Assembly (NCBI RefSeq): GCF_030028105.1
Contig: NC_092398.1
Location: 24,319,649-24,383,648 of the forward strand
Length of the DNA: 64,000 nt
Reading direction: 5' to 3'
Source of the DNA: Mobula birostris
Taxonomy: Eukaryota
Shown: piece by piece, positions 1-64,000 of the stretch
Numbering within the stretch: the first letter of the stretch is position 1
How the letters are laid out: the number at the start of each line of letters is the position of its first letter
Position numbers and translations under genes: made by a program
Notes under the pieces: model-generated
Told to the model about the DNA's origin: nothing
Database searches by the model: none
What the model saw: the letters and a program-made list of their open reading frames with translations, nothing else

Positions 1-534
1 TCTCTATCTGTAGGTCTTTGTTCTGAGAAGTTTTATCCGTCTGCGTTTGAGCCAGCTTGCCTGATATATATTTGAGAACCAAAACTTATGTAAAATGTGT
101 AGCTGCTGGAGGAGTTTTTTTTTTTTTTTTTTTGCTTCTTCGCTCTTCGGTAGCGTTGCTGGAGTTCCAGCAAAGTACTAAGAAACTGATTGCGAAGATT
201 TGCCTTGAAGTCGTCATGCAGGATGCAGTGGACTAATTATACATTGTTCTCGAAAATGATAGACATTGTTTTCTGTATATTTGAACGCTAGACAAAGGTT
301 TAAATAAGGAACTATCTGGTCATAAATTGTCCTGAAGCACGTGACATTTACTTCTGTAAAAATCCACTTGTATCTCTTGTCACGTACCATTCATGCATAA
401 GTATGGCTGAGTTTTCTTGTTTGACAGAGTCCTAAGACGCTGATTTACGAACTTGGGCTCTCCATGATATCATGTGTCAATAAAGATTTTCCGAAGCGGC
501 TCCCTTCGGGTCTGTGTACTCTTTTTCCGCGACA
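1..534 (+). repeat. 3' LTR (partial) of a further upstream provirus copy
   Basis: Near-identical to 23626-24157; AATAAA at 479; ends GCGACA followed by GTCAC (535-539). Confidence 0.9.
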
Positions 535-2654
535 GTCACGAATCACTCTAGCACTCATCATGTCTACTGGCAATGTTGGAACACAAGTGTGGAGGAGATA
601 CAGACTCCCAATGAAGAGATGGTGACCAGAGTTCGTTTATAAAATTCGAACAGAACATTCATCGCTTGGTGGATTGCCACCGTGAGACGTAGCATTCCCA
701 AAACTGGGATCGCGCGATCACGTCTAATTGGAAGACTGCTAACATAAGTAACATGGAATCTCCGAGCCTATCAAAATAAAATGAGCAAGTCTAAACAGAA
801 AGCACCGGGACCGCATCCCAAAGAGCGAGTCACTCGAGAAAAAAAAAGTAGGAAGAAATGTCAATCATTGACGTCTCGTTAAAGTTAACGAATTCGGGTG
901 CGCCAATACTCTCAGAGCTCAACACGCTCCTGGACTCCGCAAAGTCAGCGGCATTACGACCCGAGTAGGCGGTCACTTCCGACGGATGTACTGTATACGT
1001 GCGGCTGCTCTCCTCTTACGCAGATGAAAAGACGTTTTCCATCTTCTGAGATTAATGTGATTATTGGAGTGTATTTTGTATTGGTTTCCTTCAGGTTTTC
1101 GGTATTTCTTTCTTGTGGCCGATTGCCGGTGGGCTGAGCAGGTAATTGTTGCATGTAGAAGGCGATGTTGGGGAATTTGGAGTCACTGTCCCTGTTCCTT
1201 TCAGAAAGTAAGGGGTCGAAAACCTAATGTGTACGGAGTCTATGATTGTTATTGTGGCCGATTCTTTTTTTAATGCCCGCAAGGGGGAATATTGGGGTCC
1301 TCGAGTTACTTTTCTATTTTTTCCGTGCCGAATACTCTGGGGGAGTCGATGTGTTTTCTTTCATCAACATCTACGGTCTTTCTGTATTTAATCGCTATCC
1401 GTAGTAAACAAATATCATCATTTAATCACACATGCAGCGAAAATAAGAGAGATGACAGTGATATGATTAAATTATACTGAGTCAACACCCTCCACTATGT
1501 CAACAATTCACAATTTCACCCAGGGGGCGACCCTGCTGTTTGTCCTGGGGTTAAGAACTGGGGAAGAAGGCGGGACCACGAACATCAGAAGCCCCACCCA
1601 CCCACCCGACTCAACTTTTTAAATTAGTTGGCTTCTTAATGCAGTCTGTCCTTCTCTCCTCAGTGACAGGTCCCAACAGCACCACTCCGCTCATTGGTAT
1701 CTCCCGTCACAGCGCTCTCCCACTCGCTCAGCTCCCACTCAGTGGTCGCGCCCGCGCGTATGAACAAAACATGCCGACGAGATAGAAGTCCATTGCCAAT
1801 ATAGACAACCGGCTTCCACTTGTATCCTTTGGTGGATAAACATCAACCGGGTGCTTTAGCACAACGGACGAGCTAAGCGGTCGGGTGTAGTGAATGCCGA
1901 TTCACCGCTCGGAAAACAGACGACAGACACGAACACCGCGAGGCCGCGCCGACTTTCCTGAACTGAAAATGCGCAGTGGGTGGGGGCTTCTGGGGAATGT
2001 ACTCTAGATGTTATTGCTTACAGGGCATGCGCTGCGTTGCGGAGCATCCTGAGGAATATAGTAGATTCGGAATACTTCAACTGCGTATGCGATATAGCTC
2101 ATGAGCTCTTTGGGAGTCCTGCACCCTCCTGGAAGTTCTTGTTTCACAATCTTATAAGGTCTCAATGATTTCTGCACGTTAGACTAGAAATTGCCAGTAC
2201 AACTTCAAAAGTTAATTTCATTTATCTATGAGATCCAATAAGGCCGGTAAATTTTCCCCAATCCCAACAGCCCTACAGAAAGATGGGGGTGAACTGCGCC
2301 CTTGAATCGCCACAGTCTGTTGAAAGGGACTGCTGGGGCCGAGGATGCAGGGTTCAGAGCCGTTGACGGTGATGGATTTCATTTAACTTGCCCGTGATCG
2401 AATGGCAGAGCAGACTTGATCGGCCGGCTGGTCTCATTCTCTTGCCTTAAGGTCTTATGAAGTTGGGACAGCGGATGGCTCTTAGGTGGTTCGTACTGTT
2501 CGCTGCCGCCCCGCCCCCTGCGGGAAAAGCAGCAGGGTTGAGTGGGGGTGTTACCGGAATTGTCCGGGCGAGCAAACGATCTGAATTGTGCGGACATACA
2601 CTGTCCGCCAGTGTTGGAGACTGGTGTCTGACGTCAGGAGTGGCAGGTGAGGGT

Positions 2655-2875
2655 CTTCTTGTCACACGAGTCAAGCTTGTTAGCCCTGAGCTGTGCCCCA
2701 AACCTAGAAGACGAGTCGATCACTCTTAGTTTGGGGTCTATCATTTGACTTGCTTGGCATGGGTGACCCTAACGAGAGCGAAAACATAAATCTCTGACTC
2801 CAGCCGTCAAAGCTCGCTGGGCCAGTGAGGCAAGCAAGCCGCCAAACTCAACGACTGTCTTCTTGTGGTCCTGTT
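2655..2875 (-). mobile_element. Degenerate RTE-clade retrotransposon 5' UTR remnant (also 26278-26498, 53018-53238)
   Basis: Minus strand reads ...GCTGGAGTCAG...TAGGGTCACCCATGCCAAGCAAGTCA...CAGCTCAGGGCTAACAAGC, resembling RTE/Expander 5' ends as recalled; not verified by search. Confidence 0.45.
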
Positions 2876-3010
2876 GGCCGGCGGTGTGGTAAAGAGAAAT
2901 GGCTTGGAGAGGGGGCAAGCCCATATCCATTGGATCAGTGAATGTGAGGGGTCGACTAAGGTACTAAGAATCACAAAGGGACGGCCCAGTGATGGGCACT
3001 GCAACAACGA

Positions 3011-3290
3011 CTCCCAAGATCAGACACAGAGTGAAGCCCGTTCTACATTCTCTCATCCTATACTTCCAGGGTCAGACACAGAATGAAGGGCTCTCCTAAT
3101 CGTTCCATAACACATTCCCCGAGTCAGACACAGAGTGCAGCACCCTCCCCACTGTCCCATCACACTCTCCCGGGGTCAGGCAGAGCGTGAAGTTCCCTCC
3201 ACAGCGTCCAATCGCACACTCTATGGATCAGACACAAAGTGAAGCTCCCTTTACGCCGTCCCATCACCCACTACCAGCGTCAGACACAGT
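3011..3290 (+). repeat. 52-bp minisatellite, ~5.3 degenerate copies
   Basis: CAGACAC(A) core at 3021, 3073, 3125, 3177 (degenerate), 3229, 3281. Confidence 0.9.
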
Positions 3291-12233: not shown

Positions 12234-13076
12234 ATGGAGTGGGGAGCACCTTCCGTCATGACAACGGTCATCCTTATCCTTACCGTCCTACTGGGCGCCC
12301 CGGGAAACGGCGCAGTCATCTGGGTGACGGGCTTCAAGATGAAAAGTAACGTCTGGAATGTGTGCTTCCTGAACCTGGCTGTGGCTGACCTGATTTATTG
12401 CCTGTGTCTCCCCTTATACACTATTCTCCAGCTTAAACCCATTTATTTTTGGCTGGTTGTATTACCCACTATGTTCCTAGTCGCTTTTGCCAGCCTATAT
12501 CTGTTATGCCTGATCAGCATCTACCGCTGCCTGGCTATTACACGGCCCATATGGTTCCAGCAACATCTGAGCCTCGCATGGGTTCGTGTGACCTGCTTCG
12601 TGGTCTGGGTCATAGCCATCGTCATCTTTATGCTTGTATTCTTCTCTTGGTATTTTTCCGTGTGTGCGCTAATTTGGATCACGTTCACCTTCGCCCTCCC
12701 GCCTCTTGTAATTATGATCATTTGCTACGCCTTCGTTGGCCGGAGGCTGCAAGGGGTCAGGCTCGCTGAGTCCAGGAAGCCCATACGCCTGATCGTGACC
12801 ACGGTCGCCGCATTTATGATCTGCTGGCTCCCCAGCACTCTCTACGCCCTCATACCAAACGCCTACATGCAGAGTCATTTTAACTGGTATATACTCACTG
12901 AGGCCCTGGCCTCATTCAACAGCGCCCTCAACCCTCTTATCTACGTCTTCGCCGGCAGCGACTTCCGTCAGGTCTTCAGGCGCTCCATGTTTGCCTCGCT
13001 CCTGCTGGCCTTCACCGAGCATGAGCCAAAGGGTGAGACCGAGACCCGCAATTCCACCTCAAATACGAATGTCTGA
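12234..13076 (+). CDS. Class A GPCR, chemoattractant receptor family (C3aR/FPR/CMKLR1-like), copy 1; 280 aa from the first ATG (frame open from GTG at 11982)
   Basis: 7 hydrophobic segments: TM1 LGAPGNGAVIWVTGFKMK, TM2 FLNLAVADL, TM3 ASLYLLCLISIYRC, PIW in ICL2, TM5 ..IMIICY, TM6 FMICWLP, TM7 LASFNSALNPLIYVFAG, helix 8 DFRQVFRRS. ATG 12234 has a strong Kozak context (agaATGG). Exact orthology cannot be assigned by eye. Confidence 0.9.
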   Translation: MEWGAPSVMTTVILILTVLLGAPGNGAVIWVTGFKMKSNVWNVCFLNLAVADLIYCLCLPLYTILQLKPIYFWLVVLPTMFLVAFASLYLLCLISIYRCLAITRPIWFQQHLSLAWVRVTCFVVWVIAIVIFMLVFFSWYFSVCALIWITFTFALPPLVIMIICYAFVGRRLQGVRLAESRKPIRLIVTTVAAFMICWLPSTLYALIPNAYMQSHFNWYILTEALASFNSALNPLIYVFAGSDFRQVFRRSMFASLLLAFTEHEPKGETETRNSTSNTNV

Positions 13077-14457: not shown

Positions 14458-17400
14458 CAGACCATAAGGCCATAAGACAAAGGAGCAGAAGTCTGCCATT
14501 CGGCCCATCGAGTCTCCTCAGCCATTTTATCATGAGCTGATCCATTCTCCCATTTAGTACCACTCCCCCGCCTTCTCACCATAATCTTTGATGCCCTGGC
14601 TACTCAGGTACCTATCAATCTGTGCCTTAAGTACACCTAATATCTTGACGTCCACTGCTGCCCGTGGCAACAAATTCCATAGCTTCACCACACTCTGGCT
14701 AAAAAATTTCTTCTCATTTCTGTTCTGAATGGGCGGCCTTCAATCCTTAAGTCATGCCCTCTCGTACTAGACTCCCCAATCATGGGAAACAGCTTTGCCA
14801 TATTCGCTCTGTCGATGGCTTTCAACTTTCGAAATGTTTCTATGAGGTCTCCCCTCGTTCGTCTAAACTCCAAGGAATACAGTCCAAGAGCGTACAAACG
14901 TTCTTCATATGTTAACCCTCTCATTTCCTGAATCATTCTAGGGAATATTCTCTGTACCCTCTCCAACGTCAGCATGTCCTTTTCTTAAATAAGGAGACCA
15001 AAACTGCCCACAGTACTCCAAGTGAAGTCTCACCAGCGACTTATAAAGCCTCAACATCACATTCCTGCTCCAATACTCTATTCCTCTTGAAATGAATGCA
15101 AACATTGCATTTGCCTTCTTCACCACCGACTCAACCTGGAGGTTAATCTTAAGGCTATCCTGTGTGAGGACTCCCAAGTCCCGTTGCATCTCAGAAGTTA
15201 TAATTATTTCCCCATTTAAATAATAGTCTGCCCGTTCATTTTTTTTTCTGCCAAATTGCATCACCAAACACTTTCCAACACTGTGTTTCATTTGTCACTT
15301 CTCTTTGTTTCCTCAGCACCACCGGCCCCTCCACCTACCTTCGTATCGTCAGCAAACTTAGCCACAAATCCATCTATTCCATAATCCCAATCGTTGATGT
15401 ACCAATTAAAAAGAAGCGGCCCCAGCACGGACCCCTGTGGAACACTACTGGTAACCGGCAGCCAACCAGAATAGGATCCCTTTATTCCCAGTCTCTGTTT
15501 CCTGCCAATCAGCCAACGCTCTTTCCACGTATTTAACTTTCTCATAATCCCATGGGCTCTGATCTTGTTAAGTAGCCTCATGTGTGGCACCATGTGAAAG
15601 GCCTTCTGAAAATCCAAATATACAACATCCACTGCATCTCCCTTGTCCAACCTACTTGTAATTTCTTGAAAAAATTGTCATATCTTTGTCAGGCAGGATT
15701 TTCCTTTAAGGAATCCATGCTGAGTTCTGCCGACCTTGTTATTTGTCTCCAGGTGCTCTGTAACGTCATCCTTGACAACTCGTTTCTGCATACCACGACA
15801 CGGTTTATCCTACCCCACCCCATCCCCCATTCAATCCCTTCCTACCTATGATCGTGACACTTCTCACGCTCTTAAACTTTTCGATGATTTTAAGTTCCCT
15901 GACCCCACCTTTTTATTTTTCCCATGCATGTCCAGTCCCTATATACTTCTATTACCCATCGGGAAGGTCGTAAAGATCTCCGCTTCTTTTTGGATTCGAC
16001 ACCTAATCAGTTCCCCTCTGCCACCATTCTGCTCCTTATAGCGGAATTAGTTCTTACTCTTAATAAGTCTTCCTCCAAAGTAAAGGTGTAGCTATGGGCA
16101 CCCGTATGGGTCCTAGCTATACCTGTCGTTTTGTTGGTTTTTGCAACAATCTATGTTCCAAACCTATTCTGGTATCTGTCCCCAACTTTCCCTTCGCTAC
16201 ATGGACGACTGCATTGGTGCTGCTTCCAGCACGCATGCTGAGCACGTTGACTTAATTAACTTTGCCTCCAACCTTCACCCTGACCTCAAGTTTACCTGGT
16301 CCATTTCCGACATCTACCGCCCCTTTTTAGATCTTTCTGTCTCTATCTATGTTGACAGCTTATCTATAGATGTCTACTAGAGGCCGACTCACTCTCACAG
16401 CTATCTGGACTATTCCTCTTCTCACCCTGTCTCTTGCAAAAATGCCATCTCCTCCTCGCAATTCCTCCGTCTCCGCCGCATGTGCTCTCAGGATGAGGCT
16501 TTTCATTCCAGGACGAGGGAGATGGCCTCCTTTATTAAAGAAAGGGGCTTCCCTTCCTCCACCATCAACTCTGCTCTCAAGCGCATCTTCCCCATTTCAC
16601 GCACATCTGCTCTCACTCCATCCTTCCGTCACCCCACTAGGAATAGGATTCCCCTGATCCTCACCTACCACCCCACCAGCCTCCAGGTCCAACATATTAT
16701 TCTCCGTAACTTCGGCCACCTGCAACGGGATCCTACCACTAAGCACGTCTTTCCCTCCTCCCCCTCTCTGCTTTCCGCATGGATCGCTCCCTTCGCGACT
16801 CCCTTGTCCATTCGTCCCTCCATCCCTCCCCACTGATCTCCCTCCTGGCACTTCTCCTTGCAAGCGGAACAAGTGCTACACATGCATTTACACTTCCTCC
16901 CTTACCACCATTCAGGGCCCCAGACAGTCCTTCCAGGTGAGGCGACACTTCACCTTTGAGTCGGCTGGGGTGATATACTGCTTCCAGTGTTCCCGATGTG
17001 GCCTTCTGTATATTGGTGAGACCCAATGCAGACTGGGAGCTCGTTTTGCTGAACAGCAACGCTCTGTCCTCCAGAGAAAGCAGGATCTCCCAGTGGCCAC
17101 ACATTTTAATTCCACATCACATTCCCATTCTGATATGAGTATCCACGGCCTCCTCCACTGTAAAGATGAAGCCACACTCAGGTTGGAGAAACAAAACCTT
17201 ATATTCCGTGTGGGTAGCCTCCAACCTGATGGCATGAACACTGACTTCTCTAACTTCCGCTAGTGCCCTACGTCCCCCTCGTACCCCATCCGTTATTTAT
17301 TTATATACACACGTTCTTTCTCTCTCTCTCCTCTTTCTCCTTCTGTCTCTCTGACTGTACCCCTTGCCTATCCTCTGTGTTTTACCTCCCTCCCCCTTTT

Positions 17401-19620
17401 CCTCCTGCCTGGGCCTCCTGTCCCATGATCCTGTCATATCACTTTTGCCAATCACCTGTCCAGCTCTTAGCTCCATCCCTCTCTCTCCTGTCTTCTCCTA
17501 TCATCTTGGATCTCCCCCTCCTCCTCCCACTTTCAAATCTCTGACTAGCTCTTCCTTCAGTTAGTCGTGACGAAGGGTCTCGGCCAGAAACGTCGACTGT
17601 ACCTCTTCCTAGAGATGCTACCTGGCCTGCTGCGTACACCAGCTGCTTTGATGTGTGTTGCTTGAGTACTTTCTCTGTCGTAATTGTGACTGCTCACACT
17701 TCTCTTCCCTGCCACCTTTGAGTGTCCGTTATACGGATAATTTTCTCCTCAGTGAGGACTGATGCAAAATACTCGTTCAGTTCCACCGCCATCTCCTTAT
17801 CTCCCATTACAATTTCTCCAACATCATTTTCTATCGGTCCTATACCTAGCCTCACCTGTCTTTTTCTCTTCATATACTTGAAAAAGCTTTTAGTATCCTC
17901 TTTGATATTATCTGCTAGCTTCCTTTCATAGTTAATGCTTTCCCTCTTAATGACCTTCTTAGTTTCCTATTGCAAAGTTTTAAAAACTTCCCAATCCTCT
18001 GTCTTCCCACTAATTTTTACTTCCTTGTATGCCCCCTCCATTGTTGTAACTTTGACTATGGCTTTTTCCATTCAAAAATTTCTTCTTTTTTGGAATACAC
18101 CTGTCTTGCACCTTTCTCACTTCTCGCATAAACTCCAGCCACTACCGCTCTGCCGTCCTTCCTGCCAGTGTCCCTTTCTAGTCAACTTTGACCAGTTCCT
18201 CTCTCATGCCGCTGTAATTTCCTTTACTCCACTGAGATACTGACACATCGGATTTCGGCTTCCCTTTTTTCAGATTTCACAGTGAACTCAATCATGTTAT
18301 GATCATTGTCTCCTAAGGGTTCCTTCATCTCAATTTCTCTAATCACCTCGGGTTCATTACACAATACCCAATCCAGTACAGCCGATCCCCTAGTGGGATC
18401 AACAACCTGTTCTAAAAAGCCATCTCGCAGACATTCTACAAATTCTCTTTCTTGAAATCCAGTGCCGACCTGATTTTCCCAATCCACTCGCATGTTAAAA
18501 TCTCCCACAATTTTCATAACATTGCCCTTCTGTCAAGGTTTTTCCATTTCCTTTTGGAAATGTGTAGTACACATTACTGCAGCGGTTTGGAGATCTATAA
18601 ATAACTGCCATCAGGGTCTTCTTACCCCTGCGATTTCTTCGCTCAACCCATAAAGATCCCGTACCTTCCGATCCTATATCACCTCTTTTTAATCATTTAA
18701 TATCATTTCTTACTAATAAACCCACGCCTCCCCCTCTGCCTACCTTCCTATCCTTCCGGTACAGCGTGTGTCCTTGGACGTTCAGCTCCCAGAGACATGC
18801 ATCATTTAGCCAGTTCTCAGTAATGGCCACAATATCATACCTGCCAATCTGTAGCTGTACGACAAGGTGATCCACCTTATTCCTTATGCTGCGTGCATTT
18901 CAATATAACACCTGAAGACCAGTATGTGGTACTTTTCGCTTTGGTTTCGCTGCAACCTTATTACACTGCAACTCATCCCGATGGCTACAAATTTGCCCCA
19001 TCACCTGCCTGTCTTTCCTGGCATTTTTACTGCTCACTATCTTGGATTTGTTTATGTTTTCCCCTTCCTCCGCTCTATCATTCCGGATCCCATCGCCCTG
19101 CCAAACTAGCTTAAACCCTCCCTAACAGCTCTATTAAATCTTCCCGCAAGGATATTGGTCCCCTTCGCGTTCAGTCGTAACCTGTCCCTTTTGAACAGGT
19201 CATATTTCCCCCAGAAGAGATCCCCATTATCCAAGAATCTGAAACCCTGCCCCCTGCACCGCTCTCCAAGCCATGCATTCATCTGCCTGATCTTACTATT
19301 CTTGCCCTCGCTCGCACGTGGCACAGGTAGCAATCCCGAGATTACTACCCTGCAGGTCCTGCTTCTCAGCTTCCTTCCTAACTCCCAGAAATCTCTCTTC
19401 AGGACCTCCTCCCTTGCCCTATCTATGTCATTGGTGCCAACATGTACCAAGACAACTGGCTTCTCGCCCTTCCCCTTCAGAATATTCTGGACCCGATCCG
19501 AGACATCCCGTACCCTGGCACCTGGGAGGCAACACATCATGCGGGTATCTCTATCAGGCTCACAGAATCTCCTGTTCATTCCCCTGACTATGGAATCCCC
19601 TATGACTACCTCTCTGTAGT
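14458..19620 (-). mobile_element. Near full-length decayed CR1 LINE (ORF1 SGNH esterase, APE endonuclease, RT) interrupted by a Penelope element
   Basis: ORF1 VVIGDSIVRG/VHVGTND (19106 ORF); EN DIVAITENWL, RKDR..GRGGGV, GDFN, LDWVL, DHNMI; RT VYLDFQKAF, VPQGSVLGPLLF, KFADDTK; (ACCATAAG)n tail at ~14460. A further CR1 piece lies at 14106-14457. Confidence 0.92.
15790..17661 (+). mobile_element. Penelope-like element (RT + GIY-YIG endonuclease), 5'-truncated, nested in CR1
   Basis: GVAMGTRMGPSY, LRYMDD, PFLD, CSQDEAFHSR, VIYCFQCSRCGLLYIGET..RLGARFAE, VATHFN, QPDGMN; hammerhead-type motif at 17563-17598. Confidence 0.9.
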
Positions 19621-26633: not shown

Positions 26634-26913
26634 CTCCCAAGATCAGACACAGAGTGAAGCCCGTTCTACATTCTCCCATCCTATACTTCCGGGGTCAGAC
26701 ACAGAATGAAGGGCTCTCCTAATCGTTCCATAACACATTCCCCGAGTCAGACACAGAGTGCAGCACCCTCCCCACTGTCCCATCACACTCTCCCGGGGTC
26801 AGGCAGAGCGTGAAGTTCCCTCCACAGCGTCCAATCGCACACTCTATGGATCAGACACAAAGTGAAGCTCCCTTTACGCCGTCCCATCACCCACTACCAG
26901 CGTCAGACACAGT
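26634..26913 (+). repeat. 52-bp minisatellite (unit 2)
   Basis: Copy of 3011-3290. Confidence 0.9.
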
Positions 26914-43240: not shown

Positions 43241-43249
43241 TCCGATAAC

Positions 43250-45110: not shown

Positions 45111-45783
45111 TATGGAAGAGAAATATCAATGGTTTACATTGTAATGGGCATTGAGGGAATAATGAATTGTTTTTAAATGAGAACTCGAAATCTATAAGCA
45201 TTTATCTGTAATTAACGTACTCTGTGTGACTGAAATGCGCCCTGCAGCCGAGATACAAAAATAACTGTATTTGTACTTCCTTGTTCTGAGAATTTTCATG
45301 TTTCTGCGTTTGCGCCAGCTTGCCTGATATACCTTCGAGAACTAACACTTAGGTAAAATGTGTAGCTGCTCAACGACATTTTTTTTGCTACTTCGCTATT
45401 CGGTAGCGTTGCTGGAGTTCCGCTAAAAATACTGAGAAACTGATTGCTAAGCTTTGCCTTGAAGTCGTCATGCAGAACGCAGTGTACTACTTATACATGG
45501 TCTTCCAAAATGTTAGACATTGTTCTCCGTAAATGCTAGACAAAGGTTCAAATAAAGAATTATCTGGTCATACAATGTCGCGAGGCACGTGACCATAGTG
45601 TTGTAAAAATCCACCTCAGTGTCTCTTCTCACGTACCATTCATGTATAAATATGACCGAGATTTCTTGTATGACAGAGTTCCAAGACCCCGCTTTCAGGG
45701 GTTCGGGCTCGCTTTGATATCATGTATCAATAAAGATTATCGGAAGCAGCTTCTTCGAGTCCGAGTATGCTGTTTCCGCGACA
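45111..45783 (+). repeat. 5' LTR of the ERV (unit 2 only)
   Basis: Starts TATGGAAG and ends CCGCGACA; TATAAA at 45645, AATAAA at 45729; homologous to 50218-50898; followed by the PBS. Confidence 0.92.
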
Positions 45784-45786
45784 AAT

Positions 45787-45804
45787 TGGCGATGAGGATG
45801 TGAT
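45787..45804 (+). promoter_or_regulatory. Primer-binding site, tRNA-Ser(GCT)
   Basis: TGGCGATGAGGATGTGAT matches 16/18 nt of TGGCGACGAGGATGGGAT, the complement of the vertebrate tRNA-Ser(GCT) 3' end as recalled; 3 nt downstream of the LTR. Confidence 0.8.
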
Positions 45805-46058
45805 CATCTTTAGTATCCAAACACGTTCCAAGTCAGGAGGGAATTGCTGGACGGGTACTATTTTAGCCGGATCTCTGAAAAAAGGACCCGAGCGGAAAGA
45901 GGGGAGCTTCCAAGGGGACTGAAATTGTAAAAGGAAGAGTACCGTTCAGAAGATGAAGGAACGGAGAAGTTGCTGAGGAAACTCTAAACCGGTGAGCGCT
46001 GCAGAGAAGCTCTCGGGGAAATAAGCGGGCGCGCGGCGTAACTCTTCTTTTTCAGACG

Positions 46059-47830
46059 ATGGGAACTGTCTGCAGTCGGGCGTCTGCTACTGCTCCTGCA
46101 GACCCGCCCCAACGAGCAAGATCGCGTTGGGCCTTGAACGTAAGTAGGAAAACCGTGAAACGGATGAAAACTGTGAAGAAAGCTCGGCAGAATGGAGGAG
46201 ATCCCTTGATACCCCCGGAGTCACGAGCAGACACGGTAATTCGGGAAACAGGTGACGACCGATACGCTGTAACTTTTAGCAAAGATCTGTACGGCTGGTC
46301 GCAGGGAGACTGGCCGTACGGAGGGAGTTTTAAAATTGATTTGCAACAGACCTGTTGGGACGAGGTAGCGAATGGAAATGGGAACCCTAAGTGTGATTTT
46401 GAGAATATGATGGGATGTTTTGGGAAATGGATGCGGGTGGCAATGAGACACCAGCCCCATAAACAAAAGAGAAAGAAAGAAAAAGAGGAGGAGCACCCTG
46501 TCACGAAGAGTCTCGATGAAAAGCAAGGCCCGGCACCACCAACCGCTCCGCCACCCGACCCACCCAGACACCCCCCCCCCCCCCCCAACGATGCGGGCAC
46601 ACGTACCATTATACTCCCGGATACCGCAAATGGTATCTCTCGAAAGGAGAGATTCTGGTCCTAATATTCTACCAAATGGACTGATAAACGAGATAATAGA
46701 GATGGTAGCAGCCTGGGTCAGCAGAGTAACCGCACTCGGGAACAATCGGCACATCAGCTCCTGCTGAAGGAGCTGATGAACCCGCACAAAGGGCAGGCGG
46801 AGGGGAAGGCAGGGAGGTATAACTGGAGGAAGGGGTACAAACCAGACACATGTCTCAACGAATGGCCATTCACTCCTCCACCTCTCCGACAGTTCAGCCT
46901 CCAACAATAATGATAGGAGAAACAGTAATATTAAAGCCATGGACGCCTGCAGAGGCCTGAGCTTTTGTAGCTGAGCTCCCGAAACGAATAAAAAGACCAA
47001 CAGCGTTCCTCAGTTGGTTGGAACAAATGTGCGAAATTTATAAGCCTCTCCCGGTAGATTTGCGGACTCCTTTTCAAACGTGCCTATGAATGCTCCTGGG
47101 CAGCTTCGAAAGATACATTCCAGATTCCGCCCGGGAAGAATGCAGATTAGCGGAAAGATGATGAGAAAACACCACAGGGTAACGAATCCCTGTGTTCTTG
47201 GCTGTCCAGTAGAGGGAAGGACGCCATATTGTGGGCAGCACAACGGCATAGGGACTTAGGAGAAGTGACTAGATGCTTTCAGAAGAAGATTGAAGGAGCC
47301 CCTGATTTTATATGCCTGAGTTCTCTTAGAGGAAAATGGGCCATTGGCCATCTAGACTCTGCAAAATTTAATGTTGCCCCAACAAGGCAGATTTTTAAAA
47401 TGCGAGATTTGAACTGGCAGGCTATGCCTTGGTCAAAACTAGTCACTACTTTGATAAACATGGTAAGGGAGGGAACCTTCGTCGCACCAGGGATGGCCTT
47501 CAAACGCATTAGACAAAATTTTACCTACAGGAACAGGGTAGGGGAAAAGAAAAACGGAGAACATAGAAAAAGAGAGTTGAAAGATCCCAGGATATGTGCC
47601 GAAGATGTGGGGAAAATGGGCATTGGGCCAAAGAGTGCCGAATTCGTGCAAAGCAGGGTCGAAGTACTTCCTATAAAGAACCCACAGAATGGACTGGACA
47701 AAACGAGAGAAGGGTGACCTCCTTCTCTTATAGCAACCCTTTCCCACTGGAATATGGGTCCCAGGGGAGGTGGTGGTATAGGGAACGGTCATATCACTTT
47801 CCCAAGACTCCGAAACGCAACCCATGGTAA
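46059..47830 (+). pseudogene. gag: ERV gag (frameshifted, with stops)
   Basis: MGTVCS myristoylation-type start, matrix-like WPYGGSF, PTAP late domain, zinc knuckle CRRCGENGHWAKEC (CX2CX4HX4C) at ~47597. Confidence 0.85.
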
Positions 47831-49534
47831 ATCTTAGAATAGGAGACACTCACTTGGTGGACACTGGCGCTACCCTGTCCTCTGTACCCCCACCCTGGGA
47901 TTACCCCTGAGCCAGAACAGGTTAGGAACCGTAGTGGTAGCCGGAATCCCACTGTCAGAACTCTTATCGAAGAAGTTCCCCTTGTCCCTGGGAGACACTT
48001 GTATACAAGAAACTTTGATAGTCTCCAATACTACTCCCTTGCCGCTGTTGGGATGCCAAGCTCTGTGTAAGGTAGGAACTACTATTTACCGCTCTCCTCA
48101 GGGCATGTACATGGAAGTACCCTCGCCCCGGACGCATCAGTTAACGTCCCTGTTTCTCAACCACGAGGCCAAACTCGACCTGGTATTGTAATGCTGGCAA
48201 CTCGAGGGCAACCCCGACACAGTTAGGATGTACCGGCTGCGGCCAGAACTTGAGGGGCTGGCGCCGACGGCTCGCACTGAAGCTTTGTGGGGCTTGTTGC
48301 AAGTGGTCCGATACTACTCCCGTTTACACTGCACCGCCTGGTAGACAACGACAGATGATCCAGAATACCGAGAAAAGGCGTACACCCACGAAGGGCTTAA
48401 AGCTGAGATACACCCAGACCCTTATCTATATTTTGAGAAGGAAGGGCTGGGTATCCCGTTACGCCTGACCGCAGAGTAGCAACCCCTGTCCCACCTGGGA
48501 CCTGCGTCAATACCTCACCTACCCCTTGCTGTACGGCCTCCCTATCAGGAGAAACAGATAGGCCCAATGATGAAACGGTTGCAATCAGCCCCTATTATCG
48601 AGTGCATTGGGGACTTTGAATGGAACGGGCCTGAGGAGGGAAGAATACACCTTCCAGGAACATCCCGCCAGTTGGAGGACCCCCTAACCGAATTTCAACG
48701 ACAACAACTGCCCGAGCCGCCAGGCCATAGGAGCCCTTCAGCATTGGAAAGGGTAAATGCAGACTTGTGGGCCCTCCACAAGACACACGTGGGTCGAGTG
48801 GTCACTGCGAGAGACCTCTGTGTCAAGCTAAAAATGAATGCTGTATTACCATGTGTTAGGCAGTATCGACTAGCAGCTAAGGCAGAAGAAGGCATAGCCC
48901 CGGTCAGGGACTCTCTGCTCCAACAGGGGGTTCTCAAGCCTACCGTCAGCCCCTGTACAGACCAGTACTGCCTATACCTAAAGTTGGACGGCCCAATGAG
49001 CATTGCAATTCCCATAGCACCGGTGGTACCTGACGTCAGTATGATTGTTTCATCCATTCCCTCTGATGCTACTGTCTACACTGTGGTCGACCTGTGCTCC
49101 GCGTTTTTTTTCTATTCCTCTCCATCCGGATAGCCAGTATTTGTTTGCCTTCACATACAAAGGGCATCAGTATACCTGGACCCGATGCCCCAGGGGTATA
49201 CCGAAATTCCGGCCGTGTACGCTGCTGCAGTTGAACATGACTGAGACAAGTGTCATCTGGGAGAAAGTTCTATATTAATACAATACGCCGACGATCTGTT
49301 GGTGGCGTCAGCTACACTGGAAGAGTGTGTAAAAGACTCAGTGACCCTACTCCAGTTCCTAGCTGCCCGAAGTCATTGGTGGCTAAATCCAAGCTGCAAT
49401 TTTGTCAGCCACAAGTGCAGTACCTCGGGTGTTCATTGAAGGCTGGGAATCGAGAGATCGTAGCGGACCGAATACAGACCATTTTACAGACACCGACGCC
49501 AAAAACGAAAAAATTCGGGTCGACGGTCAGCTAA
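47824..49534 (+). pseudogene. pol: ERV pro-pol: protease, 2H-phosphodiesterase-like insert, RT (truncated before RNase H/integrase)
   Basis: LVDTGATLS (DTG at 47860), LLG; LHCTA (48327) and PHLPLAV (48516); RT VVDLCSAFF/SIPLHPDSQYLFAFTYKGHQYTWTR, QYADDLLVA (49284), KLQFCQPQVQYLG; several stops and frameshifts. Confidence 0.9.
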
Positions 49535-49990
49535 CAACAGGCAGAGTCCAGCGGGACTGAGGATGTAGTGGTTGACCGGAGTGGTGTTCATAGGAGCGTT
49601 GATTCAGGTGGTGGGAGGGAGCAACACTAACACCTTATTGTTCCTCTGCCATCCGTATGCTGATAGGTAAAGCAGGGAGCATGCTGCGTATGGGCCGAAA
49701 TTCCCCAGCTGGTAAAACGATGATCCGTATGTCGGTGGTCCCTCTTAACCTAAGTGAAGTGACATCAGTAGTTTTGTTTAGTGGGGGCAGGAATGGTTGC
49801 AGTGTCAATGGTTCTGAGATCTGGCCAGGATGGCCTTCTGGCTTTGCAGGATGGTACTATCGGCCTTCTTCCCGCAACCCGTCCAACCTATGGTCAGGAG
49901 TTAGTGTAACTCCACCGCAGCGGAACAGTAAAAAAAAAACTTCTGTTACTGCAATAACAATTAGAGCTGCCCTTACCAAGTAGGGGATTT
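49535..49990 (+). pseudogene. Probable env SU remnant
   Basis: Lies between truncated RT and the PPT; Cys/Trp/Gly pattern (YC..., GCSVNGSE.WPGWPSG..GWYYRP) reminiscent of class I SU N-termini; no TM region seen. Confidence 0.4.
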
Positions 49991-50206
49991 CTCCTGCTCA
50001 AAAATAAGACTGCCTCTGATGACACTCTACCCCGTCCCCTTAATGGCAGTTACCCGAAATGATGGAAGACACAGCCGGCAAGGAGCATCTGCTGAGGTGA
50101 AGAGGTGTACCCAGGGAAGAAAATACCATTCTGCGATGCATATAAATTCCCTTATGAGGAGGAGGAGGAAATACCACAGTAAAGAGTGTTAATCTCGAAG
50201 ATTAAC

Positions 50207-50216
50207 AAGGAGGGAA
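50207..50216 (+). promoter_or_regulatory. Polypurine tract
   Basis: AAGGAGGGAA immediately before the 3' LTR start at 50218 (same at 23463-23472). Confidence 0.8.
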
Positions 50217-50217
50217 C

Positions 50218-50898
50218 TATGGAAGAAAAATATCAAAGCTTTACATTGTAATGGACATTGAGGGAATAATGAATTGTTTTTAAATGTTAAATCGAAGTCT
50301 ATAATCATTTATCTGTAATTAATGTACTCTGTGTGACTGAACTGTGCCTTGTAACAGAGATATAAGAAATCTCTATCTGTAGTTCTTTGTTCTGAGAAGT
50401 TTTATCCGTCTGCGTTTGAGCCAGCTTGCCTGATATATATTTGAGAACCAAAACTTATGTAAAATGTGTAGCTGCTGGAGGAGTTTTTTTTTTTTTTGCT
50501 TCTTCGCTATTCGGTAGCGTTGCTGGAGTTCCAGCAAAGTACTAAGAAACTGATTGCGAAGATTTGCCTTGAAGTCGTCATGCAGGATGCAGTGGACTAA
50601 TTATACATTGTTCTCTAAAATGATAGACATTGTTTTCTGTATATTTAAATGCTAGACAAAGGTTTAAATAAGGAACTATCTGGTCATAAATTGTCCTGAA
50701 GCACGTGACATTTACTTCTGTAAAAATCCACTTGTATCTCTTGTCACGTACCATTCATGCATAAGTATGGCTGAGTTTTCTTGTTTGACAGAGTCCTAAG
50801 ACGCTGATTTTCGAACTTGGGCTCTCCATGATATCATGTGTCAATAAAGATTTTCCGAAGCGGCTCCCTTCGGGTCTGTGTACTCTTTTTCCGCGACA
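50218..50898 (+). repeat. 3' LTR of the unit-2 provirus
   Basis: Homologous to the 5' LTR; AATAAA at 50843; ends ...GCGACA followed by TSD GTCAC. Confidence 0.92.
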
Positions 50899-53373
50899 GT
50901 CACGAATCACTCTAGCACTCATCATGTCTACTGGCAATGTTGGAACACAAGTGTGGAGGAGATACAGACTCCCAATGAAGAGATGGTGACCAGAGTTCGT
51001 TTATAAAATTCCAACAGAACATTCATCGCTTGGTGGATTGCCACCGTGAGACGTAGCATTCCCAAAACTGGGATCGCGCGATCACGTCTAATTGGAAGAC
51101 TGCTAACATAAGTAACATGGAATCTCCGAGCCTATCAAAATAAAATGAGCAAGTCTAAACAGAAAGCACCGGGACCGCATCCCAAAGAGCGAGTCACTCG
51201 AGAAAAAAAAAGTAGGAAGAAATGTCAATCATTGACGTCTCGTTAAAGTTAACGAATTCGGGTGCGCCAATACTCTCAGAGCTCAACACGCTCCTGGACT
51301 CCGCAAAGTCAGCGGCATTACGACCCGAGTAGGCGGTCACTCCCGACGGATGTACTGTATACGTGCGGCTGCTCTCCTCTTACGCAGATGAAAAGACGTT
51401 TTCCATCTTCTGAGATTAATGTGATTATTGGAGTGTATTTTGTATTGGTTTCCTTCAGGTTTTCGGTATTTCTTTCTTGTGGCCGATTGCCGGGGGGCTG
51501 AGCTGGTAATTGTTGCATGTAGAAGGCGATGTTGGGGAATTTGGAGTCACTGTCCCTGTTCCTTTCAGAAAGTAAGGGGTCGAAAACCTAATCTGTACGG
51601 AGTCTTTGATTGTTATTGTGGCCGATTCTTTTTTTAATGCCCGCAAGGGGGAATATTGGGGTCCTCGAGTTATTTTTCTATTTTTTCCGTGCCGAATACT
51701 CTGGGGGAGTCGATGTGTTTTCTTTCATCAACATCTACGGTCTTTCTTTATTTAATCGCTATCCGTAGTAAACAAATATCATCATTTAATCACACATGCA
51801 GCGAAAATAAGAGAGATGACAGTGATATGATTAAATTATACTGAGTCAACACCCTCCACTATGTCAACAATTCACAATTTCACCCAGGGGGCGACCCTGC
51901 TGCTTGTCCTGGGGTTAAGAACTGGGGAAGAAGGCGGGACCACGAACATCAGAAGCACCACCCACCCACCCGACTCAACTTTTTAAAGTAGTTGGCTTCT
52001 TAATGCAGTCTGTCCTTCTCTCCTCAGTGACAGGTCCCAACAGCACCACTCCGCTCATTGGTATCTCCCGTCACAGCGCTCTCCCACTCGCTCAGCTCCC
52101 ACTCAGTGGTCGCGCCCGCGCGTATGAACAAAACATGCCGACGAGATAGAAGTCCATTGCCAATATAGACAACCGGCTTCCACTTGTATCCTTTGGTGGA
52201 TAAACATCAACCGGGTGCTTTAGCACAACGGACGAGCTATGCGGTCGGGTGTAGTGAATGCCGATTCACCGCTCGGAAAACAGACGACAGACACGAACAC
52301 CGCGGGGCCGCGCCGACTTTCCTGAACTGAAAATGCGCAGTGGGTGGGGGCTTCTGGGGAATGTACTCTAGATGTTATTGCTTACAGGGCATGCGCTGCG
52401 TTGCGGAGCATCCTGAGGAATATAGTAGATTCGGAATACTTCAACTGCGTATGCTCTATAGCTCATGAGCTCTTTGGGAGTCCTGCACCCTCCTGGAAGT
52501 TCTTGTTTCACAATCTTATAAGGTCTCAATGATTTCTGCACGTTAGACTAGAAATTGCCAGTACAACTTCAAAAGTTAATTTCATTTATCTATGAGATCC
52601 AATAAGGCCGGTAAATTTTCCCCATTCCCAACAGCCTCCAGAAAGATGGGGGTGAACTGCGCCCTTGAATCGCCACAGTCTGTTGAAAGGGACTGCTGGG
52701 GCCGAGGATGCAGGGTTCAGAGCCGTTGACGGTGATGGATTTCATTTAACTTGCCCGTGATCGAATGGCAGAGCAGACTTGATCGGCCGGCTGGTCTCAT
52801 TCTCTTGCCTTAAGGTCTTATGAAGTTGGGACAGCGGATGGCTCTTAGGTGGTTCGCACTGTTCGCTGCCGCCCCGCCCCCTGCGGGAAAAGCAGCAGGG
52901 TTGAGTGGGGGTGTTACCGGAATTGTCCGGGCGAGCAAACGATCTGAATTGTGCGGACATACATTGTCCGCCAGTGTTGGAGATTGGTGTCTGACGTCAG
53001 GAGTGGCAGGTGAGGGTCTTCTTGTCACACGAGTCAAGCTTGTTAGCCCTGAGCTGTACCCCAAACCTAGAAGACGAGTCGATCACTCTTAGTTTGGGGT
53101 CTATCCTTTGACTTGCTTGGCATGGGTGACCCTAACGAGAGCGAAAACATAAATCTCTGACTCCAGCCGTCAAAGCTCGCTGGGCCAGTGAGGCAAGCAA
53201 GCCGCCAAACTCAACGACTGTCTTCTTGTGGTCCTGTTGGCCGGCGGTGTGGTAAAGAGAAATGGCTCGGAGAGGGGGCAAGCCCATATCCATTGGATCA
53301 GTGAATGTGAGGGGTCGACTAAGGTACTAAGAATCACAAAGGGACGGCCCAGTGATGGGCACTGCAACAACGA

Positions 53374-53653
53374 CTCCCAAGATCAGACACAGAGTGAAGC
53401 CCGTTCTACATTCTCTCATCCTGTACTTCCGGGGTCAGACACAGAATGAAGGGCTCTCCTAATCGTTCCATAACACATTCCCCGAGTCAGACACAGAGTG
53501 CAGCACCCTCCCCACTGTCCCATCACACTCTCCCGGGGTCAGGCAGAGCGTGAAGTTCCCTCCACAGCGTCCAATCGCACACTCTATGGATCAGACACAA
53601 AGTGAAGCTCCCTTTACGCCGTCCCATCACCCACTACCAGCGTCAGACACAGT
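53374..53653 (+). repeat. 52-bp minisatellite (unit 3)
   Basis: Copy of 3011-3290. Confidence 0.9.
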
Positions 53654-56600
53654 GAGTTCCAGTGAGGAAGAAATCACTGATAGTCTCCATGTACTGTCTG
53701 TGAAACTCTTGTTCACATATGGTTCGGATTTCTGCAGCATTCATGGACTCACGGTCTCAGACTATATTTTTTTGTCTGAGTGTATTTACTGATATCTTAT
53801 ATGCACGTGCAAACATTTATATTGTTTTGTTATGTGTTGCTGTTGGTATTTTTTGTTTACCTTGGCCCCGGAGTAACGCTGTTGCGTTCGGCTATAATCA
53901 TGTATGCTTGATTAACAATTAAATGAAACTATGAAATGTGGATGCAAAGGCTCATGGCGTCGTAGTTAAACATTGGGGAACGTAATTCCAAAGCATGGTC
54001 ACACTGGAGACAACATCTCAGAGATTCCCTTCGAGGCACTTCGGCCGAGCGACAGTGGTGGGGACAGATATGGAACTTTTTCAACGAGAGTATCTTCCCC
54101 CTTTGCATCAGGGACCGAGAGAGGAGGCTATCGCTCAGTGCGTTCAGAACACAACATGTTGAAGAATGAAACACGGGAACTGGTCCTACAGCACACCATT
54201 TCTGTGATAACCCGACCCCAAACTACATTAATCTCTTCAAACTTAGTGCATATCTCTTCATTCCATTCAATTTTAAACACCATAGACTATTAGACATAGA
54301 AGCAGAATAAGGCCATTCAGCTCATCGAGTCTGATTTATCATCCACCTCAGCAACATTCTCTGGTCTTCTATCCATATACTAGGACACGTTTTCTCAATA
54401 GAGAGATCGGCAACCTCCAGGGTAGCGGGGTGGAGATAAATATCTACCAGAAGAGGTGGAAGACGCTCCTTCCCTCCGGTAGCCTGCAGGTCACCATTAG
54501 GCACGTTGTAACACCTGCTTTGTTCTCCCGATCAGTGTCACAGGGAACCGCGAGGGCAGTTGGTATGTGTAGCGGGTGTATATCACAGATTCTGACTGAG
54601 CAACCTGTGATGCCAGGCAGACAATCTCAGAAGGACATTGATAATGGCTGGGTTAAACCATCTTGTAAAGATACTGGCCAGTAGAAGGCACACGAAAACG
54701 GCGGCGACTTTCCGGAAGAGAAAATGCGCTTTTGGTGGAAGAACACACACAAAATGCCGGTGGAACGCAGCAGGCCAGGCAGCATCAGAGGAAGAAATAC
54801 AATCAACGTTTCGGGCCGAGACCTTTCGTCAGGACGAACTGAAAGAAGAGTGAGTAAGAAATTTGAAGTGGTTGTCCTGCTGGATGTAGTCTACAATGCT
54901 GTTGCTTACAGGGTGTGCGCTCCGTTGTGAAGGATGTCGGGAAATGTATTAAATGAGGAATAATTCAACCGCGCATGCTCTATAGCAAATGGGGTTAATT
55001 TCAGAAATTAATCACGTGGCCTCCTTCTAACTTAACTTCTCAACAATGAAAGGAAATGCTTTGTTATTCACTGCTCTCTGAGTAAAATATTATCTCATGA
55101 TGTCAACACCTCAACTTCCTAATATTGAGCTTCCTGGAACTACAAACCCAGAGTGTCTCTACCGATGTGGAGTAACTCATCTCTTCTGTTCATTGGGAAT
55201 TAAGACCGCACCTTTGCTAAATTAGCATCCAAATTCCGCACAAGAAACAACTCCTCAAAATAACTCGATCACCCAATGAATTCGACCGTCCATCACTGTT
55301 CAGGTCCTGTGCAAGGCTACTCCCATGCGCCCAAGGGAATTTAACGTCTGAGTGCAAGTATCCAAACCTGCGGAGGACCGCGACGGAGCCGGAGATTTCA
55401 GGCAAAGGTGAGATGAATTTCCACGGGATTCAGATAACAGATACTGAGATAGTGTAGACAGTCAGAATCGCTTTCCCATTGTGGGAGTAACATTCAGAGG
55501 AAAGCTTATATTTATCATGAGGTCATGAGGACATGATTATTTTGGTATCAGAGAGTGTAATGTCCTGGTTCATATTTTTACCGTTATTTTGTAAGTATTT
55601 CATTTTAGTCTTCAGCCTCCAAGTTCACGAAACCAAATCCTTAACTATCGACTCCAATATCTTCCCAACCACTGCGGTCAGACTAATTGGCCTACAATAT
55701 TCTTTCTTCTTCCTCTCTCCATTTTTGAGGAGTCTAATGACGTTTGCAATTTTACAGTCTTCGGACCTATTCCAAAAACCAGTGATCCTTGAAAGATCAT
55801 TACGATTGCCTTTGCAATCTCTTCAGCTACCTCTTTCTGAGCACTGGGGTGTACACCATCAGGTCTATGTGACTCATCCACGTTCAGACCTATCAGTTTG
55901 CCAAGGATCTTTACCCCAGTAATGTTAACTTCACACACTTTATGATCCACGATACACGAACGGTATGTTGCTTCCGTGCTGCCAGGATAAAGAATGTCTC
56001 TGAAACGATCCAAGGACATTCCCAAAGACGACAGGGGACAGCCAAAAGTATTACTTCCTATTGGCACGAATAAAATAGGGAGACAAAGTGACGAGGTCCT
56101 GAAGAGACATTTTAGGGAATTCGGTAGAAACTAAGAAACAAGACTTTCAGGGTGCTAATCGCTGAATTGCTAACTGTGTCATGCGCCAGTCATTGTAGGA
56201 ATAGGAAGAATTGGCAGATGATGACGTAATTGATGAACTAGTGCAGAGGGCACGCAGGAACTTAGATTCATCGGACATTGGGATCTCTTCTGGTGAAGGT
56301 ATGACTTGTACAAAAGGGACTGATTACACCTGAACCCGAGATGGTCCAATATCCTTTCGTGGCTGAAAGAGGATTTTTCAGTAGCTAGCAGCTTAATGTC
56401 CAAGGTTTTACAGTGTAGCGCAAGGACAGGCAGGACGGCAGAAGTTGTGGCGTTGGTGTGATGCTGAAAAAAATGAATTGAAATCATTAGTAAGAGGTGA
56501 CAATGGAAAGAAGGTTATTGAATCTTTGTGGATTCACTGTGAGAATTCGGATACAATCCCGAAAATAATTTGGCTTATTGAGATTTTTCTATCGAGTATC

Positions 56601-62500: not shown

Positions 62501-62593
62501 ACCAGATCAGACATATCGCTCTCTGAAGGAGTGTCCAATTCGACGTTCACTGGGAATCTCTCCCCCAACAATTTCGCGACCGGTAGATTCAGA

Positions 62594-63436
62594 ATGGAGT
62601 GGGGAGCACCTTCCGTCATGACAACGGTCATCCTTATCCTTACCGTCCTACTGGGCGCCCCGGGAAACGGCGCAGTCATCTGGGTGACGGGCTTCAAGAT
62701 GAAAAGTAACGTCTGGAATGTGTGCTTCCTGAACCTGGCTGTGGCTGACCTGATTTATTGCCTGTGTCTCCCCTTATACACTATTCTCCAGCTTGAACCC
62801 ATTTATTTTTGGCTGGTTGTATTACCCACTATGTTCCTAGTCGCTTTTGCCAGCCTATATCTGTTATGCCTGATCAGCATCTACCGCTGCCTGGCTATTA
62901 CACGGCCCATATGGTTCCAGCAACATCTGAGCCTCGCATGGGTTCGTGTGACCTGCTTCGTGGTCTGGGTCATAGCCATCGTCATCTTTATGCTTGTATT
63001 CTTCTCTGGGTATTTTTCCGTGTGTGCGCTAATTTGGATCACGTTCACCTTCGCCCTCCCGCCTCTTGTAATTATGATCATTTGCTACGCCTTCGTTGGC
63101 CGGAGGCTGCAAGGGGTCAGGCTCGCTGAGTCCAGGAAGCCCATACGCCTGATCGTGACCACGGTCGCCGCATTTATGATCTGCTGGCTCCCCAGCACTC
63201 TCTACGCCCTCATACCAAACGACTACATGCAGAGTCATTTTAACTGGTATATACTCACTGAGGCCCTGGCCTCATTCAACAGCGCCCTCAACCCTCTTAT
63301 CTACGTCTTCGCCGGCAGCGACTTCCGTCAGGTCTTCAGGCGCTCCATGTTTGCCTCGCTCCTGCTGGCCTTCACCGAGCATGAGCCAAAGGGTGAGACC
63401 GAGACCCGCAATTCCACCTCAAATACGAATGTCTGA
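62594..63436 (+). CDS. Chemoattractant-family GPCR, copy 3
   Basis: ORF 62342-63436; differs from copy 1 at three nucleotides (62795, 63008, 63222: K>E, W>G, A>D). Confidence 0.9.
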   Translation: MEWGAPSVMTTVILILTVLLGAPGNGAVIWVTGFKMKSNVWNVCFLNLAVADLIYCLCLPLYTILQLEPIYFWLVVLPTMFLVAFASLYLLCLISIYRCLAITRPIWFQQHLSLAWVRVTCFVVWVIAIVIFMLVFFSGYFSVCALIWITFTFALPPLVIMIICYAFVGRRLQGVRLAESRKPIRLIVTTVAAFMICWLPSTLYALIPNDYMQSHFNWYILTEALASFNSALNPLIYVFAGSDFRQVFRRSMFASLLLAFTEHEPKGETETRNSTSNTNV

Positions 63437-64000
63437 TAGAATACCTCGTGGGCCCTCAGCCGACCAATATCTCCTGACTACAGACACAGTGGACAGTCGG
63501 CTGCAAATATGGTCAGCACTGGAGGCTTTCCTGTACGCTTCTTCCAATCTCTTAGAACATAGAGCGTAGAACAGTACAGCTCAGGGACAGGCCATTCGGC
63601 CTACTATTGTCGGATCAATTAAATTATTAAATTACTGGCCAATTAATCTAATCCCCTCTGAATACCCAATGTCGATATCCTTCCAATTAGCTCATTTCGC
63701 CGACATAAACATCCCTGAAAAGTCTCTGAGCTATCTGTCTTTACCATCATCCCAGTCAGCGTATACCAAGCACGCACCACTCTCTCTGTGTAAACTACTT
63801 GCCCCTCCCATCTCCCTTGTAATTACGCAGTCTCCTCTTAAATGCATGGCCTTTGGTGTTAGACATTTCAACCTTCGGTAAAATATACTGTTGCTCTGTG
63901 CCTTTCATAACCTACCAAAATTCCATCAGGTCTCCCCTCTCTTTTCGCTGGCCCAGTCTTCATTCGGATACAACAATCCATGGTCTCGTCCACTGTCGAG

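Follow-up and report, generated by a model that had tools for sequence, protein, structure and literature searches.

A passenger provirus and C3aR-derived receptors lacking the extracellular lid in a tandem array of the Mobula birostris genome

The window analysed here is a 64,000-nucleotide stretch of the Mobula birostris genome (4.0 Gb), positions 24,319,649 to 24,383,648 of contig NC_092398.1 (C34 below), and it carries tandem units that each contain a GPCR (G-protein-coupled receptor) gene together with an endogenous retrovirus (ERV). Taken as a whole, the best explanation, which we consider probable, is a passenger provirus in an array of lidless sensors descended from the C3a receptor (C3aR). 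An ERV, apparently lacking env, was integrated a single time, 9 kb behind a ray receptor gene derived from C3aR; thereafter the 27-kb block as a whole was multiplied into about 18 tandem units, and the provirus travelled along as a passenger. The receptors would be working G-protein-coupled sensors with an open pocket and birth-and-death evolution, and diversifying selection for ligands that vary and are not C3a probably acts on their outer face; such ligands might be guessed to be microbial, parasite or damage-derived peptides, sensed on leukocytes or skin. The receptor clade matters more than the ERV-carrying array.

One insertion carried along in the array

Nineteen same-strand receptor units (U01-U19) extend over about 0.5 Mb of C34 (24.19-24.69 Mb), of which U06-U08 lie inside the window; an inverted older block (M1-M7) occupies 23.83-24.03 Mb, and the stretch at 25.66-25.72 Mb contains paralogues that are more distant (D). 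The sequence covered comprised nearly the whole same-strand array (about 540 bases missing) and parts of the M and D blocks. Self-comparison of the window revealed three tandem units at offsets of 23.6 and 26.7 kb, with an identity of 99.4-99.6% over 13-20 kb. The receptor ATGs are at 12234, 35855 and 62594, spaced by 23,621 and 26,739, so the sequence-only reading of this DNA was right in describing three near-identical GPCR copies 23.6 and 26.7 kb apart. The 19 units bear out its description of the array as open at both window ends. Its further statement that the receptor is the sole host-like gene of each unit agreed with a Pfam comparison of 30 long frames inside and outside the element, in which the other frames matched esterase, endonuclease and reverse-transcriptase (RT) domains of retroelement type, or nothing.

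Both long terminal repeats (LTRs) are present in just one window unit, U07, whose provirus is the only complete one in the window. Of 667 aligned sites these two LTRs disagree at 102, and the first 120 nt contain exactly 10 of the mismatches; their divergence is thus far above that between units, as had been judged by eye. The pentamer GTCAC stands behind every 3′ LTR of the window (3/3, at 535-539, 24158-24162 and 50899-50903), as also described before, and ahead of the window's only 5′ LTR (45106-45110), all on the + strand; it occurs 48 times in the 64 kb. Its presence on both sides of the provirus indicates a 5-bp target-site duplication (TSD). Across the array, the same host flank and GTCAC precede all 16 U-type 5′ LTRs, GTCAC follows all 17 listed ends of U-type 3′ LTRs, and the solo LTRs of U18, M2 and M7 are each placed between two GTCAC.

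The LTR tree (n = 40) separated the 5′ LTRs as one clade (19 rows, support 98/98) from the 3′ LTRs as another (17 rows, 100/99), while the three solo LTRs grouped apart and one damaged 3′ LTR (M6) fell outside both clades. The outermost unit, U19, represents an empty site with both flanks joined by a single GTCAC, and in the tree its gene region lies outside the 12 tested genes that bear a provirus (91/91). Two points weigh against this placement: 91/91 is under the star threshold of the tool, and a tree from the flanks only leaves U19 unresolved. With D2 and D3 as outgroups for the empty site, homology stops short of the insertion site, and further loci compared in this way gave no match.

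The common site and TSD, the LTR tree and the empty site strongly support the earlier claim of one old insertion that was amplified passively, and we regard the passenger history of the provirus as nearly certain. We rejected the alternative that the element was inserted anew beside each receptor copy, since the LTRs group by end and not by element; site and TSD are identical, internal deletions are shared and nothing was found in favour of repeated insertion, so that its probability is negligible.

LTR pairs are 15.5% apart (14 pairs), 5′ LTRs differ from each other by 2.5% and 3′ LTRs by 2.8%, and the host DNA of U02-U17 diverges by 3.4% on average (range 0.1-5.6%; 0.4-0.6% among the window units). 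Set against the 15.5% of the LTR pairs, the 3.4% of host DNA puts the age of the burst at about one fifth of that of the insertion; for the duplications in the window the fraction is about one thirtieth. The description of a young array therefore holds for U02-U17, but the window is the youngest part and the older inverted block shares the insertion. The M5 provirus (C34 23.957-23.968 Mb) has an old-type 5′ LTR and a 3′ LTR 94% like those of the young array, which points to a recombinant, and M3 is an opposite-strand mirror of U18.

A 5.2-kb block of retroelement fragments (RT and GDSL esterase; 38074-43246, with no strand assigned) is present in M3, U18 and U01 and missing from U19, M1 and M5, and therefore it is younger than the provirus. 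Deletions removed 1.9 kb of pol in U05-U07, U10, U11 and U13, the 5′ LTR in U06 and the 3′ LTR in U17. The order of events is gene, provirus, retroelement block, amplification and deletions.

A 444-base deletion private to M6 was found also on a contig from another organism, and the Mobula hypostoma gene model XP_062891248.1 (NCBI) has element pieces beside the receptor, gag- and integrase-like and fused to it; on these grounds the insertion is likely older than the split of these species. This gene model is either an annotation artefact or a chimeric transcript. Contig depths were not counted as evidence: in run X2, three provirus pieces nearly identical to the window had depths of 59-63 compared with 3.9-6.8 for divergent pieces, and in run X8, from another organism, a 96% piece had 15.5 compared with 12-19. 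Such values would fit numerous copies in one organism and few in the other, but depth is no measure of copy number and X2 may derive from the source of the assembly itself.

We might also consider that the provirus is more than a passenger, with its same-strand LTR driving, or splicing into, the receptor exon of the next unit and so aiding amplification. The orientation is the same in every unit, and XP_062891248.1 does join element pieces to a receptor. However, that model may be an artefact, the receptor gene keeps its own conserved upstream block, an LTR is gone in U06 and U17 and only solo LTRs are left in U18, M2 and M7, and the amplification has about one fifth of the age of the insertion; we consider such a driving role very unlikely.

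Concerning the growth of the array, the units are mosaic: in U03 the left part resembles U04 and the right part U02, and U08 first resembles U07 and then U02 and U04. Four-gamete incompatibility rises from 3% (<100 bp) to 39% (>10 kb) over 583 informative host sites, and nearest neighbours switch within units. Multiplication by repeated unequal crossing-over is likely from these patterns. Switch points are spread over the retroelement block, the surroundings of the provirus and the downstream region, so the provirus was not the sole substrate of crossing-over. The human RCCX module with HERV-K(C4), as presented in PMC3595039, resembles this array in its tandem immune-gene modules, its unequal crossing-over and gene conversion, the mosaic pattern by crossover and the ERV inside the module. 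The array differs from RCCX in having about 18 single-gene units with the ERV outside the gene, in young units that all derive from one filled site, and in its long, short, truncated and solo-LTR forms of the provirus. An ERV-carrying array is a known kind of event; this one is unusually clean, in that its whole history can be put in order from an empty site, the solo LTRs and the nested deletions.

The array could in principle be an assembly artefact of uncollapsed haplotypes, which the sequence-only reading had named as the finding that would overturn it. Over about 50 kb, U11-U12 match U13-U14 with an identity of 99.7-99.98%, and the single gap of the array (200 N, C34 about 24.505 Mb, outside the window) falls in U12, its sides nearly contiguous when compared with U14; the true unit count may for these reasons be 17 rather than 19. 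However, unit differences are graded from 0.1 to 8.8% and are accompanied by private deletions and insertions, and two haplotypes cannot yield 19 such units. The window contains no N, and the doubt is limited to about two units at most. For the array as a whole an artefact is thus highly improbable, and only this one two-unit block may be a false duplication.

A clade of receptors without lid and disulfide

The window receptor matched Pfam PF00001 (7tm_1) with 85.5 bits and its AlphaFold model (predicted local distance difference test, pLDDT, 81) has a seven-transmembrane (7TM) fold, which makes it a class A GPCR. The best match was C3aR both in sequence (E 1e-39) and in structure (TM-score about 0.8; Z 28 and a root-mean-square deviation of 2.3-2.5 over about 250 residues, PDB 8ia8 and 8i95).

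A protein tree was made from 117 rows, composed of the window protein and 116 of 126 matches, with ten partial or mis-spliced models dropped and with FPR, C5aR and MRGPR not included. In this tree 77 of the 117 proteins, from Pristis, Hypanus, Hemitrygon and Mobula (sawfish, stingrays and devil rays), form what we call the lidless clade (SH-aLRT, the Shimodaira–Hasegawa-like approximate likelihood ratio test, 99), the lidless state being one change on the tree. The clade is nested among canonical ray and shark proteins within a chondrichthyan C3aR-like clade of 103 rows (SH-aLRT 100). The tree that defines it is a quick search without bootstrap, which counts against our reading. The 120 of 318 matches that were listed included no skates or electric rays. 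No description of the lidless clade was found in the literature searched, most subscription papers and supplements, including ray gene-family tables, being outside that search.

Asp3.49 is gone in all 77 clade proteins and Cys3.25 in 73 of them; eight of eight shark relatives are canonical, and members of the clade have so far been observed in rays only. In the window protein Trp occupies 3.25 and YRC replaces DRC; the clade has lost about 25 residues of the second extracellular loop (ECL2), the lid. The loop between transmembrane helices 4 and 5 (TM4-TM5) has about three residues in the AlphaFold model. The span from W4.50 to P5.50 measures 32 aa in the window protein, while canonical relatives from fish have 46-62 and the C3aR of birds and turtles 89-108, and it shortens from 56 to 40, 35 and finally 31-32 residues across nested subclades. 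The signalling core is kept: N1.50, D2.50, R3.50, W6.48 and NPxxY are all found in the window protein and in 73-77 of the 77 clade proteins (W6.48 in 73). We consider it very probable that the lidless clade is functional.

Human C3aR holds the terminal Arg of C3a (Arg77) by Arg5.42, Tyr6.51 and Asp7.35, according to PMC10518620. Of 40 canonical proteins, 37-38 retain these three residues, as do 23-24 of 25 canonical shark and ray relatives; the window protein has Trp, Ser and Tyr instead, and most of the clade has varied replacements. The label "immune-type" given to the receptor by the earlier reading thus holds by descent only, the C3a-binding residues having been lost. Database labels for the clade are C3a or formyl-peptide receptor-like, yet the known mode of C3a binding would be impossible for it.

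Comparison with known families led to two resemblances. To C3AR1 and the C5aR/FPR/CMKLR1 clan the receptor is linked by its best sequence and fold match and by canonical shark and ray relatives that keep the C3a contacts; it differs from C3aR by lacking the disulfide between Cys3.25 and ECL2 and by an ECL2 that is nearly absent, compared with about 172 aa. With MRGPRX1-4 and MRGPRD, as PMC10286997 describes them, it shares the class A fold without the TM3-ECL2 disulfide and an open pocket, and it differs in keeping W6.48, which is Gly in MRGPRX1 according to the same source. The sequence match to MRGPR is weaker (E 1e-20 compared with 1e-39), and the TM4-TM5 disulfide is not fixed in ray receptors. 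Membership in MRGPR was rejected, since C3aR, FPR and CMKLR1 score far higher and the receptor is nested among canonical C3aR-like proteins. Judged from these comparisons, the resemblance to MRGPR is convergence, and the receptor appears to be a C3aR descendant that is a member of neither C3aR nor MRGPR as defined. By analogy, it may work like an MRGPR. Rodent Mrg genes have likewise undergone a lineage-specific tandem expansion.

U02-U04 and U09 carry Cys atop both TM4 and TM5 (region of receptor residues 136-144), and a new Cys in ECL1 (residue 69) is seen in U03, U04 and two proteins of M. hypostoma; an MRGPRX-like replacement disulfide is conceivable. A further cluster of related receptors was found at C34 20.2-21.2 Mb, several of which match in two pieces, as expected with a long ECL2.

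In this clade the disulfide and lid typical of class A were lost independently; intermediates survive to this day, and the copies in a ray genome are numerous. We might tentatively propose that in sawfish, stingrays and devil rays a C3aR-like gene gave rise to an MRGPR-like sensor repertoire of their own by stepwise loss of lid, disulfide and C3a pocket, with the core kept and the outer face diversifying, and that the manta array is caught in mid-expansion and time-stamped by the provirus; we hold this larger proposal with less than even confidence. If true, it would provide a stepwise-testable origin of open-pocket, MRGPR-style sensing and an undescribed arm of ray immunity or chemosensation.

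Selection on the receptor and integrity of its copies

The codon tests omitted U04 and U07, whose proteins equal those of U03 and U06, as well as U13, U01 and U19, and 61 outer-face codons were compared with the 218 others. Changes concentrate on the outer face. At codon positions 1 and 2 of eight young copies, 33 of 122 outer-face sites are variable (0.27), compared with 190/2605 in the flanks (0.073) and 27/436 in the core (0.062), so that the outer face changes at 3.7 times the flank rate. Shifted partitions reached the observed score in 0 of 264 cases for young sets and 6 of 264 for old. U08 differs from U06 and U07 by three amino-acid changes, all on the outer face, and by no silent change. 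With a shared silent rate, omega (the ratio of amino-acid-changing to silent rates) is 1.6-3.9 on the outer face and 0.53-0.63 in other codons; with separate silent rates it reaches 1.43 on the outer face of older paralogues (p = 0.047) and 2.9 in the young set (p = 0.007) only without U12 and U14. The core omega of older intact paralogues is 0.59 (p = 4e-7 against 1).

Several results weigh against diversifying selection. The partition was drawn after the variable columns had already been seen and was not blind. Whole-gene omega of the young copies is 0.80 (p = 0.26 against 1), and M2a is preferred over M1a only at p = 0.013 in these copies. When silent rates are separate, the outer-face omega is 1.43 and not significant in two of the three young sets, with p = 0.25, or p = 0.17 if broken copies are included; counts of amino-acid-changing and silent sites are not significant in young sets (Fisher p = 0.17-0.53), and recombination as well as a multi-base change in ECL1 of U03 inflate the codon tests. 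The diversifying selection suggested by the sequence-only reading is therefore moderately supported, by the concentration of change on the outer face, while omega exceeds 1 significantly in only some of the tests. Weighing these, we lean slightly towards positive selection in the young array.

Selection for dosage, the other option of that reading, was not supported, because 7 of 19 copies are broken and the ancestral start codon is lost in 15 of 17. In the remaining 12 of U01-U19 the frame is open from the second Met onwards; that of U05 has a read-through tail. The ancestral start survives only in U15, which has a nonsense mutation, and in U16, which is the only copy to combine it with an open frame, a further point against intact function of the copies. 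Three runs presumed to be RNA yielded nothing but short pieces, similar to the coding sequence at about 80%, which have no bearing either way on expression.

The same history could also have produced a nearly neutral young array, expanding and contracting through unequal crossing-over, in which most copies decay once the start codon and the glycosylated N-terminus are gone. In line with this, overall omega is 0.80, core omega is 0.59-0.70 and marginally or not below 1 in young sets, and the broken copies and lost ancestral ATGs are as given above. However, the second ATG, which has A at position -3 and G at position +4, is kept in 17 of 17 copies, and the older open-frame paralogues M1, M6 and M7 are also without the first ATG; gap intervals are fewer in coding sequence (4 in 843 nt) than in flanks (25 in 2582 nt), and decay would not give a 2-4.5-fold concentration of change on the outer face. 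We consider near-neutrality somewhat unlikely.

Another possibility is that lidless receptors have no ligand of their own, being constitutively active through loss of Asp3.49 or acting as modulators, with an unconstrained outer face. Loss of Asp3.49 raises basal activity, and here Asp3.49 and the pocket residues were lost together (Asp3.49 in 77/77) with the signalling core kept. The 3.7-fold rate of the outer face is more than relaxed constraint predicts, and we judge receptors without a ligand improbable compared with sensors whose outer face diversifies.

Layout of the window and nature of the element

The receptor copies, upstream blocks and provirus parts below are on the + strand. The window begins with the 3′ part of the U05 3′ LTR (1-534), which continues past the left end of the window. 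Receptor copy U06 (12234-13076) is a 280-aa open frame from the second Met, with ATA at the ancestral start (12153); its 5′-deleted provirus interior (19621-23473) is followed by the 3′ LTR (23474-24157). In this unit 3.1 kb including the 5′ LTR are gone, with AGT microhomology at the junction 19618-19620, and the spacing of U06 is shorter because of this deletion. Receptor copy U07 (35855-36697) has the same coding sequence as U06 and also ATA at the ancestral start (35774); receptor copy U08 (62594-63436) differs from both at amino acids 68, 139 and 210.

A conserved upstream block (33984-34425) is predicted to contain the promoter and a non-coding first exon, with splicing inferred from a GT donor-like site at 34403 and an AG acceptor-like site at 35765. 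A second copy of this block, 80% identical, is located at 54989-55430 and is likely an orphan promoter. In the older M4 unit, a second receptor gene of D type is still held at this place, behind the promoter-like block, and the ancestral unit therefore likely held two receptor genes.

The U07 provirus is composed of the 5′ LTR (45111-45783), a primer-binding site (45787-45804), a broken interior with gag and RT fragments (45805-50217) and the 3′ LTR (50218-50898). It is a short form, in which about 1.9 kb of pol is missing at 49511-49513 compared with longer copies. The primer-binding site is of tRNA-Ser(GCT) type: at 16 of 18 bases it pairs with the 3′ end plus CCA of this tRNA in the same genome. 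The 3′-end motif of this tRNA has 78 exact matches in the genome, of which 67 are scattered along one chromosome, C17, on both strands.

Of the hallmarks of an ERV, the LTRs, primer-binding site, polypurine tract and TSD were present, and the LTRs start with TG in older copies and with TA in young ones. The pol and gag frames of the window copies gave no Pfam match, and classification comes from a longer copy, in which natural fragments matched zinc knuckle, RT, RNase H and integrase in retroviral order. Among solved structures, the integrase is nearest to foamy virus (8e-19; Ty3 9e-8) and the RT to murine leukaemia virus (5e-6; Ty3 0.02). No Pfam match to env was found in the approximately 1 kb between integrase and 3′ LTR of the longer copy, where env may have decayed or been deleted. 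Each of the 12 interiors examined is fragmented, and the longest stop-free frame has 322 aa. The element has the order LTR, primer-binding site, gag with zinc knuckle, RT, RNase H, integrase, polypurine tract and LTR, as do env-less vertebrate ERVs with a tRNA-Ser primer and a 5-bp TSD. It may belong with class III or ERV-S-like elements, a label to which only primer type and TSD length point; compared with these ERVs it has no env match and fragmented interiors.

Two overlapping frames at 16381-17263 and 40001-40883, which gave no Pfam match, resemble by eye what we take to be the C-terminal RT/GIY-YIG-type region of a Penelope-like element. A 52-bp minisatellite of about five copies occurs once per unit, at 3010-3289, 26643-26912 and 53383-53652.

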